From Candidatus Bathyarchaeota archaeon (GTDB lineage: Archaea > Thermoproteota > Bathyarchaeia > Bathyarchaeales > Bathycorpusculaceae): a stretch of DNA of 64,000 nucleotides. Shown here in pieces: positions 50,161 through 61,575 of this stretch. The notes beneath the pieces were generated by a model, which ran no database searches, was not told where the DNA came from, and saw nothing but the letters and a program-made list of their open reading frames with translations. The DNA lies in assembly GCA_963833575.1 (NCBI GenBank), contig CAWHXY010000004.1, positions 1,088,001-1,152,000 of the forward strand, in the 5' to 3' direction. Within the stretch, counting starts at the first letter, position 1, and each line of letters opens with the position of its first letter. The position numbers and the translations under genes were made by a program.

Positions 50161-50988
50161 GTGTCTCAGCAAGTGAAAATTGAAATCATTGAAAAAAACG
50201 ATAACAACCTCCGGTTGATCGTTCGTGAAGCAGATGTTCCGTTAATGAATGCTCTGCGTCGAATAGCACTCGCTGAGGTTCCATGCATGGCAATTGAAGA
50301 AGTTGTCATGATTGAAAACTCTTCGATTTTACAGGATGAAATAATCGCTCACAGATTAGGATTAACCCCGCTAAGAACTGATCTTGATGCTTACAGTACC
50401 CCCGAAGAATGCAAATGCCAAAGCGAATTTGGCTGTCCTTCATGTCGGGTTACACTTACACTAGATGCTGAAGCTAAAGATGGAACAAGAACAGTTTATT
50501 CAGGAGAAATCGTTTCCGATAACCCAGAAATTATTCCAGTTTCAGATAGAATTCCAATAATAAAATTAGCGAAAAACCAAAAACTAAAGCTTGAAGCTTA
50601 CGCACGGCTTGGCAGAGGCAAAACACACGCAAAATGGCAACCTGTTTCAATGTGTGCCTACAAATATTTCCCAAAAATAAGTACTCCAACTGAGAAATGT
50701 GAAGAATGCACAAAATGCGCTGACATCTGCCCCAAAAAAGTTTATTCAGTTAATGATGCAAAGATTGCTGTCAGAGACATTTTAGCATGTAATCTTTGCA
50801 TGGACTGTGTTGAAGCTTGCCCCAAGAAACCATCTCCATTAACGGTTGAATGGGAAAAGAACGCTTTCATAATGAATATTGAGTCAACAGGTGCGCTTCC
50901 GCCAGAACGTATACTAAAAGAAGCAACCAAACAATTAGGTAAAGAACTAAATGAACTTGAAGAATTATTAAAGGCTGAACCACAATGA
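50161..50988 (+). CDS. rpoD: RNA polymerase subunit D (Rpo3) with ferredoxin-like insert
   Basis: NALRR....EVP, AHRLGL.P, HAKWQP; two CxxCxxCxxxCP motifs. Confidence 0.95.
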   Translation: MSQQVKIEIIEKNDNNLRLIVREADVPLMNALRRIALAEVPCMAIEEVVMIENSSILQDEIIAHRLGLTPLRTDLDAYSTPEECKCQSEFGCPSCRVTLTLDAEAKDGTRTVYSGEIVSDNPEIIPVSDRIPIIKLAKNQKLKLEAYARLGRGKTHAKWQPVSMCAYKYFPKISTPTEKCEECTKCADICPKKVYSVNDAKIAVRDILACNLCMDCVEACPKKPSPLTVEWEKNAFIMNIESTGALPPERILKEATKQLGKELNELEELLKAEPQ

Positions 50989-51347
50989 AGGAAACTAATA
51001 GTACAAACCCAGAATTGATCACGCTTATCCGTCTTCTAAAGAAAGAAAGTAGAGAAAAACAAGCAGGCATCTGGCTAGACATAGCTGAATACCTTTCTAA
51101 AACACGTAGTCAACGCATCTCTGTTAACTTGAGCACTGTAAACAGGAATACAAAGCGAAGTGATGTGGTTGTGGTTCCAGGCAAACTTCTGGGGTCAGGC
51201 AGTATAGACCATGCAGTAACAGTAGCGGCATTTGGTGCTTCCCAGAAAGCGAAAGATAAGCTTTTTGTTGCAAAAGCAAAATACCTTTCAATTCCTGAGC
51301 TCATGGAGAAGAATCCTAAGGGCGCAAACGTAAGAATTATTCGGTGA
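50985..51347 (+). CDS. rpl18e: 50S ribosomal protein L18e
   Basis: TNP.L, VNLS, VVPGKLLGSG. Confidence 0.95.
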   Translation: MKETNSTNPELITLIRLLKKESREKQAGIWLDIAEYLSKTRSQRISVNLSTVNRNTKRSDVVVVPGKLLGSGSIDHAVTVAAFGASQKAKDKLFVAKAKYLSIPELMEKNPKGANVRIIR

Positions 51348-51793
51348 AAAAAATGCAAACAATAAAACCCACAGTAGTAAATGCTGAAGGATTAATAGTT
51401 GGTCGAATGTGCAGCAAAGTTGCCAAACGATTACTAAATGGCGAAGAAGTCATTATTCTTAATGCTGAAAAAGCAGTGTTTTCAGGTAAAAAGAAAAGCA
51501 AAATCTTAGAAGCTCATATATTCCTTGAAGTTGGCGCTCCAGAACGAGGTCCATTCCATTATCGAAGACCTGACCGTTTTCTACGAAAAACCGTAAGAGG
51601 TATGGTTCCGTTCAAGCAGCCTAAAGGCAAAAACGCTTACAAAAGGCTAAAAGTATTCATGGGTGTACCTCTTGAGCTTAAAAATCAACAAATGATTACA
51701 TTCGAAGAAGCTTCATCTGCCAATCTGAAGGGTCCACATTTTACCCTTGGAGAATTAGCAAAAGAAATCGGATGGAGAAACAGGATGGAATAA
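51344..51793 (+). CDS. rpl13: 50S ribosomal protein L13
   Basis: GRMCSKVAK.LL.G, GPFHYRRPD, VRGMVP. Confidence 0.95.
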   Translation: MKKMQTIKPTVVNAEGLIVGRMCSKVAKRLLNGEEVIILNAEKAVFSGKKKSKILEAHIFLEVGAPERGPFHYRRPDRFLRKTVRGMVPFKQPKGKNAYKRLKVFMGVPLELKNQQMITFEEASSANLKGPHFTLGELAKEIGWRNRME

Positions 51794-51795
51794 TT

Positions 51796-52206
51796 ATGCC
51801 CGCAAAGAAAGTCTTAGTTGTTAGTGGAAAAAGAAAAACCGCAGTTGCCCGAGCCGTAGTTAGACAAGGCGTTGGTAAAGTGCGAATAAATATGACTCCA
51901 GTTGAAATTTACGAACCAGACATTGCACGCGCAAAAATAATGGAGCCGCTACTGCAGGCAGGCGGAGAAGTCTGGCAACAATTGGACATGGATGTTCAAA
52001 CCAGCGGCGGAGGCTACATGGGTCAAGCAGAAGCAGCTCGTATGGCAGTTGCAAACGCACTTCTAAAATGGACAAAGAGCACTCATCTGCGAACAGTCTT
52101 CAGTGAATATGATAGAACCATGATTGCAGGGGACAGCCGAGCTAAAGAAACCAAAAAGTTCGGTGGAGCCGGCGCGCGATCAAAAGAACAGAAAAGCTAT
52201 AGGTAA
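51796..52206 (+). CDS. rps9: 30S ribosomal protein S9
   Basis: SGKRKTAVARA, GGG..GQAEA.R, QKSYR; ATG at 51796. Confidence 0.96.
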   Translation: MPAKKVLVVSGKRKTAVARAVVRQGVGKVRINMTPVEIYEPDIARAKIMEPLLQAGGEVWQQLDMDVQTSGGGYMGQAEAARMAVANALLKWTKSTHLRTVFSEYDRTMIAGDSRAKETKKFGGAGARSKEQKSYR

Positions 52207-52220
52207 GGTGAAAAAACAGA

Positions 52221-52451
52221 ATGATAATTCCCGTAAGATGCTTCACCTGCGGCAAACTGGTTGGAGACCAATGGGAAGAATTCACCCGCCGAATCAAAAC
52301 AGGCGAAAATGCAAGTGACATCTTAGATAGCCTTGGCTTGAAACGGTACTGTTGCAGACGCATGCTACTCTCAAATGTCGAAATTATCGACGAGGTTCTG
52401 CGCTTCTACGAAGAAGCAGAGAAAAGAAAAGAAGCACGCAACTTCTATTAA
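52221..52451 (+). CDS. rpoN: RNA polymerase subunit N (Rpo10)
   Basis: [18 protein letters not shown]. Confidence 0.97.
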
Positions 52452-58809: not shown

Positions 58810-58833
58810 ATATGTTTAATATACGAAACATAT
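58810..58833. promoter_or_regulatory. Perfect inverted repeat ATATGTTT-N8-AAACATAT, candidate operator
   Basis: Lies just downstream of TTTATAT (~58790) and upstream of likely start of PhoU-like gene. Confidence 0.5.
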
Positions 58834-58838
58834 ATCTG

Positions 58839-59951
58839 GTGAGTGACTTGGCAGAAAAAGATCTAGGTTATAGACGAGTCCAATGCACTGGACGAGGCTC
58901 ATACATAATCTCATTGCCCAAAGAGTGGGTCCAAGACCTAGAACTAAAACGAGGCAGCGAAATAGCATTCAACATCCAACCAGACTCCACATTAACACTA
59001 GTTCCACGGAAGATTCAGGAAAAAGAAGGAAGAGGCAACGCAGCTAAACCTAAAGAATACTACATTAGCATTGACCCAAAAGAAAAAATACAATCTACTT
59101 TACGCATGACCCGCGCCTTATACGCAATAGGTGCCGACATAATTAGAGTCCACTTCAAAAACTCCCAAGATGCAGCAAAATACAAAAACGAAATAAAAAA
59201 CTTAGCCAGAGACAATTTCTTAGGTTCAGAAATAATCGATGAAACACCAGACGAAATCACACTGCAAATCCTAATCAAACACTCAGAATTCCCAATCGAA
59301 AAAGCAGTTAGACGAATGGCTATCGTGGCACTCGCAGCAAACAGAGATGCCATCGCCGCTCTAAAAGATAGAAGCACCTCTTTGTTTGACAGCGTTATCA
59401 ACTCTCACAACGATGTAAACCGTCTAGGACTCTACATTGTTCGCCAACTGAAGTATGGAATAGAGCGAAACCTATACCGTGAACTTGGTTTTCGAACGCC
59501 CAAAGAATTCCTGCTTTATCGCATAGCCGTAAACGATGTTGAAAGCATAGCCCAAAATGCTCTGAACATAATTAACAACCTTGGTTCCTTGCAAAAACTA
59601 ATCAACGATGAAACTCTTTTCATAAAAGACCCTATAGATGAAGAAATATACAATCAACTTGTCAATTACAGCACACAAGCACACCAACTCTACGATGACT
59701 CAATAAAAGCGCTCTTTAAAAGAGAATACAAAGATGCAGAAAAACTAATCTCTAAACGTGAATCATTAAAACCGCTGGAAAACGAGCTAATTATGCTGAT
59801 GTCAAGCAAAAAAATGGATCCAAACATAGCCTCTGTCCTGCGCTTGATTTTTGATAGTTCAAGACGCATTATGGATTACAGTGGAAACATGGCTGAGTTA
59901 ACACTCAACCGAACCGTAGAAGAACTATGCTCAACACTAGCGTACAAATAG
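58839..59951 (+). CDS. PhoU-family regulator with N-terminal AbrB domain
   Basis: RRVQCTGRGSYIISLPKEW AbrB motif plus two PhoU-like helical repeats; start uncertain (58812/58839/58848). Confidence 0.85.
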   Translation: MSDLAEKDLGYRRVQCTGRGSYIISLPKEWVQDLELKRGSEIAFNIQPDSTLTLVPRKIQEKEGRGNAAKPKEYYISIDPKEKIQSTLRMTRALYAIGADIIRVHFKNSQDAAKYKNEIKNLARDNFLGSEIIDETPDEITLQILIKHSEFPIEKAVRRMAIVALAANRDAIAALKDRSTSLFDSVINSHNDVNRLGLYIVRQLKYGIERNLYRELGFRTPKEFLLYRIAVNDVESIAQNALNIINNLGSLQKLINDETLFIKDPIDEEIYNQLVNYSTQAHQLYDDSIKALFKREYKDAEKLISKRESLKPLENELIMLMSSKKMDPNIASVLRLIFDSSRRIMDYSGNMAELTLNRTVEELCSTLAYK

Positions 59952-60582: not shown

Positions 60583-61090
60583 CTTGCATTCACTACCTTT
60601 GCGAGCACCTACTCAAGCGACTATGAAACGAGTCGACTCATACTGATCCTCGGAAAAGATCGTTCACGTGCGGCACGTTTAAAGAAAATAGTGGATGAGC
60701 CAATTGTAGCTTTAAAGATTAAACTTTGAGACATTCTTTTTGTTCTTCCTGCTTATAGACAAAACAGGAATACATTTCTAACCCTATTTAAAGCGTTGGA
60801 GAAACGACATCATCGACCAGGGGAGGGTATAGTAAAAGTGAAAAAGCATAAACCCTTTAGGCATAGGTGCTTGTTTGATTTCTTTTTTTGTCTAAGAATT
60901 TTGGTTGCTAAGTAATAATAAAGGTCATTGTAAATATTTGGACAGCAATATCTCCTATATACATGGTGGCCATGTTAAAGGGAAAAAAAACAGATACAAA
61001 CATAACGCTAAGACTTCTTAAGCGCCTCTAAAGGCCAATAATAAATTCTATACTGAAAAGCGATGTATTAAGTGCAAGAAATAACTAGAA

Positions 61091-61210
61091 GGAGGCTTGG
61101 CGGATCGCTCATGTTAATCCAAGTCGCGAACCAAAATGAGACCTGATTTCTCAGGCTGTGGCGATTCGCGTCCCGTTTAACGGCTGACCAGCCAAGCATG
61201 GGTGTACCTC
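61091..61210. ncRNA. Candidate structured non-coding RNA, family not recognised
   Basis: Nested helices GCTTGGC/GCCAAGC, GGAT/ATCC, CGCGAA/TTCGCG, CCTGA/TCAGG, CCGT/ACGG; possible CTCAT/ATGAG pseudoknot; no ORF. Confidence 0.55.
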
Positions 61211-61359
61211 TTGGATGGCTATTTCTCGCAAATTAACAACTCGTTACCAAGTATAAATGGAATTGTGGTTGTATTGAGTCAACAACAAGCATGCAAGCTT
61301 TAGTTTGGATTTAAAGTCAAAAGTGTTAAATGATTAGGAAGGAGCGCTTACTTCCAGGA

Positions 61360-61575
61360 TTATGCGGATATTACTTCTTCTTGTTCTTCCAAAACTAAGG
61401 GCATAATTCTTATTTGATCATTTTCAGGTAGCTTATACTTAGTTTTGCTCGTCCTCTTTTCTTCCCCAATGCAGGACATACAGAATCCCATCAAGAAAAT
61501 GCACATTAACAATGGAAGAAGCATAATCGTTAAGCCTTTGCTTCTTTTACGAGTTTGAGCTATCAAACTTTGCAC
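61360..61575 (-). CDS. Small single-TM hypothetical protein
   Basis: One hydrophobic segment followed by charged tail; start uncertain. Confidence 0.35.
   Translation of the reverse strand: MQSLIAQTRKRSKGLTIMLLPLLMCIFLMGFCMSCIGEEKRTSKTKYKLPENDQIRIMPLVLEEQEEVISA

Follow-up and report, generated by a model that had tools for sequence, protein, structure and literature searches.

A previously unseen family of small non-coding RNAs with a near-invariant 5′ arm on a covarying rod-like hairpin in a few genera of Bathyarchaeia

Bacterial 5′-seed sRNAs, such as RybB and OmrA/OmrB, are encoded by stand-alone genes with their own promoters and combine a conserved unpaired 5′ end of ~10–16 nt with a variable structured body, a short terminator hairpin and a U-rich 3′ end, the scaffold being shared among paralogues. 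These RNAs act by short trans pairing of their 5′ end, sRNA seeds being usually 7–16 nt long. The sRNAs of methanogens and haloarchaea, including sRNA154 and sRNA162 of Methanosarcina mazei, are small, are transcribed from their own promoters and carry conserved single-stranded or loop modules, among them anti-ribosome-binding-site modules; CU-rich loops are a usual pairing module of regulatory sRNAs. Sm-class snRNAs, such as U7, join a 5′ antisense arm to a stable hairpin and a U-rich element of the A-U(4–6)-G type, whereas the bacterial 6S RNA is an abundant rod with a large central bubble and a 5′ end that closes the rod. Archaeal guide RNAs are likewise small and built of hairpins, and guide via unpaired sequence: C/D box sRNAs are 50–70 nt long, with box C (RUGAUGA) close to their 5′ terminus and box D (CUGA) close to the 3′ terminus, and in H/ACA sRNAs the hairpin with its large internal guide pocket also contains a K-turn or K-loop and is directly followed by an ACA box. 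In sediments, peat and animal guts, few uncultured archaea are as abundant as Bathyarchaeia; our full-text search of the library available to us found nothing in print on their non-coding RNAs.

Here, we describe a small non-coding RNA gene, independently transcribed from the minus strand, in a 64,000-nt stretch of a Bathyarchaeota genome (hereafter, the window, to which all coordinates without a contig prefix refer). The RNA is about 150–175 nt long, running from ~61229 down to 61056–61085, where we infer both ends, and consists of a 32-nt unpaired 5′ arm, a 103-nt rod-like hairpin (61197–61095) and a U-rich tail. It founds an RNA family not seen before, confined, within Bathyarchaeia, to a few genera of a single family; a full-text search of the literature found no such RNA in print. 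The gene shares with RybB and OmrA/OmrB the stand-alone organization with its own promoter, the conserved unpaired 5′ end, the variable structured body, the U-rich 3′ end and the scaffold-sharing paralogues, and, as is expected of 5′-seed sRNAs, it is an independent transcription unit with a conserved unpaired segment in the position of the seed. It differs from them in belonging to an archaeon, in the length of the conserved arm (25–30 nt) and in having a 45-bp rod in place of the short terminator hairpin; with no Rfam match, the likeness is not one of homology. The resemblance to the methanogen and haloarchaeal sRNAs lies in size, promoter and exposed modules, and the CU-rich loops of the paralogues described below resemble the anti-ribosome-binding-site modules, but these RNAs come from a different phylum and show no detectable similarity to ours. 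Like U7, the RNA carries a 5′ arm, a stable hairpin and U-rich elements (ACUUUUGG in the tail and UUUUUGA in the rod); however, its elements come in a different order, the U-rich ones may be a mere terminator and internal loop, and we found no conserved RNA complementary to the arm. With 6S RNA it shares the rod-like shape, the abundance and the approximate size; in contrast to 6S, it has no large central bubble, its 5′ end is unpaired instead of closing the rod, and no Rfam 6S match was obtained at E values up to 10.

Comparison with known RNA classes yielded no assignment. None of the 4227 models of Rfam 15 matched anywhere in the 64-kb window at the gathering score, and even at E values up to 10 the region 60700–61500 produced only three matches at chance level, of 21, 17 and 13 bits where 44, 47 and 36 were required; five paralogue loci gave no Rfam match at E values up to 0.1. 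RNase P RNA and SRP RNA, to neither of which the first-pass annotation of this DNA could match the block, are encoded elsewhere in the genome by copies that score above threshold, at C7:213171–213472 (184.1 bits) and C7:449530–449844 (151.6 bits), respectively, and ARAGORN found no tRNA or tmRNA genes in the window. The RNA is not a C/D box sRNA either: it is ~150 nt or more in length, has no UGAUGA, let alone RUGAUGA, and its only CUGA lies in the cap, a non-conserved part that many relatives have replaced. The H/ACA class was considered and rejected, there being no ACA 3′ of the stem in the consensus tail and no large pseudouridylation pocket among internal loops of 1–8 nt.

The gene coincides with a block that had been singled out, in a gene-free gap, for its higher GC content. 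Both observations were borne out: the GC fraction is 0.53 at 61100–61199 against 0.30–0.41 in the flanks, and there is no credible ORF around the block. On the minus strand, the hairpin (61095–61197) comprises ~45 bp; the consensus has 37 pairs. Its base is the 12-bp P1 (61186–61197/61095–61106), followed by P2a (61183–84/61107–08), P2b, which pairs GUUAA with UUAAC (61177–81/61113–17), P3 (61172–75/61120–23) and P4 (61162–70/61125–33); a U-rich asymmetric internal loop (61134–61141) separates P4 from a cap helix (61151–55/61142–46) that varies among relatives and here closes a GAAA loop (61147–50). The unpaired motifs of the rod, GUUAAC and UUUUGA, are kept in sequence.

Covariation among homologues, which the first-pass annotation had proposed as a check, supports this structure. 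We realigned 90 sequences to a covariance model and took the 37-pair consensus from single-sequence folds. In this alignment, which was fitted to a subset of the same pairs, 90.8% of 3308 cells are paired and 28 of the 37 pairs show compensatory, double-sided changes, with 217 double-sided cells compared to 72.5 ± 14.1 in shuffles; none of 500 shuffles reached the rod on any of five measures. Slid controls were 25–47% paired, a comparison flattered by the rod having been drawn from the same sequences as were tested. RNAalifold, applied to 91 distinct sequences, recovered 22 pairs, and compensatory changes occur in 16 of these. Three helices of the previously proposed fold are part of the rod and were upheld in the 90 homologues, namely the closing stem 61095–61101/61191–61197 (98.7% of cells paired), the long arm, approximately 61125–61133 with 61162–70 (89.7%), and the CCTGA/TCAGG cap (93.6%).

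Which strand encodes the RNA had been left open, and folding energy was to be compared with that of dinucleotide shuffles. The minus strand of 61090–61205 folds at −44.7 kcal/mol (z = −4.22), with none of 200 dinucleotide shuffles as good, whereas the plus strand, at −36.4 kcal/mol (z = −0.42), is equalled by 63 of 200; thus, the expectation of a better-than-shuffled fold holds for the minus strand and fails for the plus strand. Furthermore, the 90-row alignment contains 468 G-U cells against 79 A-C cells, and canonical pairs amount to 90.8% when it is read as the minus strand but 79.0% when read as the plus strand. Given this excess of G-U over A-C, the strand, which was not derived from reads, is assigned as minus.

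The most conserved part of the RNA had been overlooked; it lies mostly beyond position 61210, where the originally flagged block ends. The unpaired 5′ arm (61198–61229) contains a near-invariant 25-nt core, AAAUAGCCAUCCAAGAGGUACACCC (61200–61224), and in the minus-orientation alignment the ~30 nt 5′ of the hairpin are nearly constant, reading GCGAG, AAAUAGCCAUCCAAGAGGUACACCC and A. In 62 of the 90 rows the core is invariant by construction, since those loci were found through it; the sole fair test is provided by 28 loci that were found by BLAST with the hairpin and were not selected for the motif. Among these, the core is exact in 25 and carries one substitution in the other 3, and mean pairwise identity is 99.1% in the core, 65.7% in the hairpin and 82% in the tail. 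In single-sequence folds the arm is mostly unpaired. A helix between arm and tail, AGAGGUA/UACUUUU, could form in 95.1% of cells; we rejected it as a 5′–3′ helix, the G-to-A variants of the arm (9 rows) being uncompensated in the tail, and it shows no covariation because both sides are nearly invariant. Given that the 25 fixed bases exceed what a seed needs, protein recognition or a structural function fits the arm at least as well as pairing does.

Upstream of the arm lies a TATA box of the archaeal type, TTTATA (61252–61257), within a segment, CATTTATA, that is near-invariant in the 28 loci and stands 21–24 nt 5′ of the conserved GCGAG in their minus-orientation alignment. In archaeal promoters, ~25 nt are expected between the TATA box and the start. 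The box being at this distance, transcription is predicted to start at the G of GCGAG (61229), and contigs from RNA libraries reach 61228 on this side and no further. The promoter suggested earlier, TATTAAG at 61066–61072 on the plus strand, did not survive: it varies among relatives and falls within the 3′ tail that is transcribed as part of the minus-strand RNA. Further upstream, conserved columns of the 28-locus alignment delineate an imperfect inverted repeat, GCTTGTTGTTG-N9-ACAACCACAATTC (61260–61291), a candidate binding site for a regulator, judged from sequence. A similar motif, TTGTWGT-N(6–12)-ACARYCACA, occurs at 8 places in the same genome, in each case directly 5′ of TATA-like elements and in some cases 5′ of protein genes; examples besides the window are C4:183924, C4:527248, C6:344692 and C7:616785, and the ORFs that follow include, as named by eye, a KGG-repeat-like small protein, a fasciclin-like protein and a phosphoglycerate-mutase-like protein. 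The motif may be a regulon operator common to the RNA gene and other genes, and its sharing between promoters hints at a regulon to which two of the three paralogues belong.

The 3′ tail (61056–61094) starts with a conserved CCUaCUUUUaGUUAC (CCUCCUUCUAGUUAU here; the consensus 3′ of P1 is CCUACUUUUAGUUAC), continues through a variable stretch and ends in a U-run (61056–61059) that is likely, by its sequence, to be the terminator. In relatives, CCUaCUUUUaGUUAC is followed by variable sequence, a T-run and then a TATA-like element that belongs to the next gene. Parts of a 601-nt stretch that surrounds the RNA gene occur in 20 sequencing runs, 18 of which are recorded as RNA, from 17 studies, each run containing a small share of the words of the stretch. 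In four RNA libraries from four studies, all 7 contig pieces (records of 84–162 nt) fall inside 61066–61228, and the remaining 438 of the 601 bases, which include the promoter region and part of the upstream 71-aa ORF, have no cover. The contigs give neither the strand nor the exact termini of the transcript, and DNA may be present in an RNA library; the silence of the flanks in the same stretch nevertheless argues for a discrete, abundant small RNA, at levels that sufficed for assembly from metatranscriptomes. Two contigs from relatives extend 22–25 nt past 61082 with dissimilar sequence, which places the 3′ end beyond the first U-run.

In a DNA search, 27 of the 36 genomes compared within the genus carried the element, as against 0 of 24 drawn from eleven other families of the order. 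The conserved 5′ motif, used as an exact pattern to scan public genomes, returned 91 loci, nearly all in metagenome-assembled genomes of Bathyarchaeota/Bathyarchaeia from peat, wetland, soil and termite gut, with a few labelled otherwise; the window is therefore archaeal DNA, as the first-pass annotation had supposed. The genes around the element encode a LonC-like protease, a 71-aa membrane ORF without a family and a DUF559 protein; most relatives have the RNA flanked by the small membrane ORF and, ~100 nt away, the DUF559 gene, with all three on one strand, and the DUF559 gene is ~450 nt further away in this genome and two close relatives. The extra ~450 nt (60590–61050) are non-coding and present only here and in the two closest relatives (L009 and L010); ~300 nt of them are well conserved among the three genomes and include a TATA-like TTTAAATA.

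At the BLAST level, the window element is single-copy in its own 2.75-Mb genome. Model searches reveal three family members, the window copy and two paralogues at C7:288797–288906 (+) (L187/L193) and C7:263112–263229 (+) (L188/L203), with E values of 7e-42, 0.003 and 0.012 for the model R1, 5e-26, 4e-5 and 5e-4 for nhmmer, and 7e-17, 4e-12 and 9e-13 for a scaffold-only model; the weaker model matches cover the hairpin and tail only. Between the three types, P1 changes in a compensatory manner (GGCGGGUC/GAUCCGCC, GGCGAAUC/GGUUCGCC and GGCAAAUC/AUUUGCC), and the paralogues retain the GUUAAC elements, the U-rich stretch and a tail of the ACUUUU type. Their 5′ regions are unlike that of the window copy; the part that is invariant in them is a pyrimidine- or CU-rich apical loop, CUCUCUCCUCGCUCUUCC or CCCCCUCUCUCUUCC. 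BLAST found the two paralogues in part of the genus (9 of 40 and 15 of 40 genomes), and a sister genus has a variant of the window type, with ...AGCCAUCAAaCGUUGCAUC... in the 5′ arm and the loop CCCCUCAUUCCCC. With the scaffold model, the family extends to 7 of 121 genomes and 3 of 70 genera sampled within the taxonomic family. Weak model matches in other genera and families (L175–L180) were dismissed as chance, lying within protein-coding sequence. No protein-gene neighbour common to all three paralogues was found.

We searched for sequences with which the arm might pair. In the genome itself, which is 94% complete, every site complementary to the 25-nt core has at least 6 mismatches, or at least 4 when G-U pairs count as matches; the nearest are two sites with 6 mismatches and one with 4 under the G-U rule. 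Among 42,350 start-codon windows, the best RNAduplex value was −34.4 kcal/mol, and this candidate was discarded, the site falling within a membrane-protein ORF; a search of GATGGCTAT-type start contexts produced nothing coherent. For rRNAs, 37 tRNAs, RNase P RNA and SRP RNA, RNAduplex values stayed inside the genomic background, and the longest run paired with the arm in these stable RNAs, 10 nt, was equalled by 73 of 100 shuffled arms. The arm pairs weakly both with the two paralogues (B and C) and with the rod of its own RNA (−10.8 to −18 kcal/mol). The uL13 gene (51344–51793, plus strand) contains a 17-nt perfect complement to the arm, CATGGGTGTACCTCTTG (51658–51674, codons FMGVPLE); in 29 relatives, the closest two included, this site varies at synonymous positions, and because it is not conserved there we read the match as chance and rejected the uL13 mRNA as a target. 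A 15.9-kb viral contig (L222) holds, at positions 301–320, an exact copy of 20 nt of the core, a single match for which ~0.1 would be expected by chance on a rough estimate, that is, close to chance; the copy lies within an opposite-strand ORF (...SGVPLGWLIEEARTNL...), so that the mRNA of that ORF would be complementary to the 5′ arm.

We propose, tentatively and with somewhat less than even confidence, that the RNA is a trans-acting regulator that uses the 5′ arm for base pairing. The hairpin and the U-rich tail would form a stabilising, protein-binding scaffold, and the exposed arm would pair in trans, over short stretches, with several RNAs. A trans-pairing sRNA appears most likely because an exposed, conserved module sits on a stable scaffold that ends in a U-rich stretch and because the paralogues swap in a CU-rich loop; readings as the scaffold or guide of a ribonucleoprotein are nearly as likely, since the invariant stretch is long and no target was found. 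It is possible, if doubtful, that the RNA is a subunit or scaffold of a lineage-specific ribonucleoprotein, i.e., a stable housekeeping species and not a regulator, in which the arm and the internal loops with GUUAAC and UUUUGA would be protein-recognition or functional sites instead of antisense seeds. The fixation of all 25 core bases, beyond the need of short pairing, agrees with such a role, as do the conservation of unpaired rod motifs, the lack of a complementary target in the genome or among its stable RNAs, and the assembly of the RNA without flanks in several metatranscriptomes, which suggests abundance and stability. However, 3 of 70 genera of one family is a narrow range for a housekeeping ribonucleoprotein, the exchange of the 5′ arm for a CU-rich loop in the paralogues resembles the swapping of pairing modules, and the loci have no co-located protein gene in common. 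It is improbable that a ribonucleoprotein not yet described from Bathyarchaeia uses the RNA as its guide subunit, with an arm that recognises one fixed nucleic-acid sequence; if true, the rod, with protein bound to the U-rich elements, would present the arm, the paralogues with CU-rich loops would be sister guides built on this scaffold, and the particle would be an archaeal counterpart of U7- or snRNA-like ribonucleoproteins or of an RNA-guided enzyme.

The other explanations that we considered are much less likely. An element acting in cis, as a 5′ leader or riboswitch of the DUF559 gene or as the 3′ UTR of the upstream gene for the 71-aa membrane protein, would account for the position between these two genes on the same strand in most relatives, ~100 nt from DUF559, but it is very unlikely given the RNA's own conserved TATA box, the T-run and second conserved TATA-like element, TTTATTAAGG, that precede DUF559, the ~450 nt added before that gene in this genome and two close relatives, the ending of contigs on either side of the RNA, and paralogues in unrelated contexts; on these grounds the riboswitch or cis-leader was set aside, and nothing points to the cis-element that had been suggested earlier. 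Still less probable is that the conservation reflects a DNA-level site, for integration or binding, or a plus-strand micro-peptide (M/V/L-GVPLGWLFLA...). The plus strand does read ATG GGT GTA CCT CTT GGA TGG CTA TTT CTC GCA AAT TAA, and in most relatives the variable start base yields ATG, GTG or TTG; yet the 25 bases of the core show zero synonymous variation where the same GVPL codons in uL13 vary freely, a 1-nt insertion, GAGAAAAUAGCC, breaks the frame in several relatives, and some relatives have no start codon at this place. Against both the peptide and the DNA site stands the adjoining hairpin, which is selected on the minus strand. The least credible explanation is the one advanced in the first-pass annotation, a multi-branched RNA with a pseudoknot, on either strand and possibly a ribozyme. 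Its closing stem, long arm and cap are real, and an alternative conformer is conceivable, given that the side hairpin GGAT/ATCC is pairable in 85.5% of cells; this hairpin, however, shows a single double-sided change, and the other one, CCG/CGG, is paired in just 33–65% of cells of the 90 homologues, whereas the competing long-range pairing that makes one rod is 94–95% paired, with double-sided changes in 10 of 15 pairs. The CTCAT/ATGAG pseudoknot does not exceed the shuffle level (70.0% paired versus 67.2% in shuffles, with 2 double-sided changes, a number matched by 500 of 500 shuffles), the plus strand folds as shuffles do, and nothing indicates a ribozyme, no Rfam ribozyme family matching even at E values up to 10. 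The structure is a single rod. The general claim of a novel archaeal non-coding RNA with its own promoter stands, resting on the lack of Rfam matches, the Bathyarchaeia relatives, the covarying structure and the cover in RNA libraries, and is corrected in strand, promoter site, multi-branched fold and pseudoknot.

Whether as the trans-acting regulator that we favour or as part of a ribonucleoprotein, the RNA offers an entry point to RNA-based regulation or to a new ribonucleoprotein in Bathyarchaeia, once enrichment cultures make experiments feasible. A near-frozen 25-nt arm on a freely covarying scaffold is an unusual pattern that implies a strongly constrained partner, and the RNA could be used as a marker transcript of the clade in metatranscriptomes.

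Several other features of the window and its surroundings are worth recording. The gene at 58812–59951 (plus strand) encodes a 379-aa protein that joins an AbrB/MazE-like N-terminal domain to PhoU domains (Pfam E values of 2e-7 and 1e-10). A run of ORFs at 50161–52451 (plus strand) resembles an RNA-polymerase/ribosomal-protein cluster and comprises an RpoD-like protein of 275 aa, an L18e-like protein, uL13, a uS9-like protein and an RpoN-like protein, all but uL13 named by eye. Finally, the rRNA genes of this genome are unlinked: the 16S gene (C4:51208–52702, minus strand) and the 23S gene (C4:1159452–1162476, plus strand) lie ~1.1 Mb apart, and the start of the latter is ~10 kb past the RNA gene and no longer within the window.
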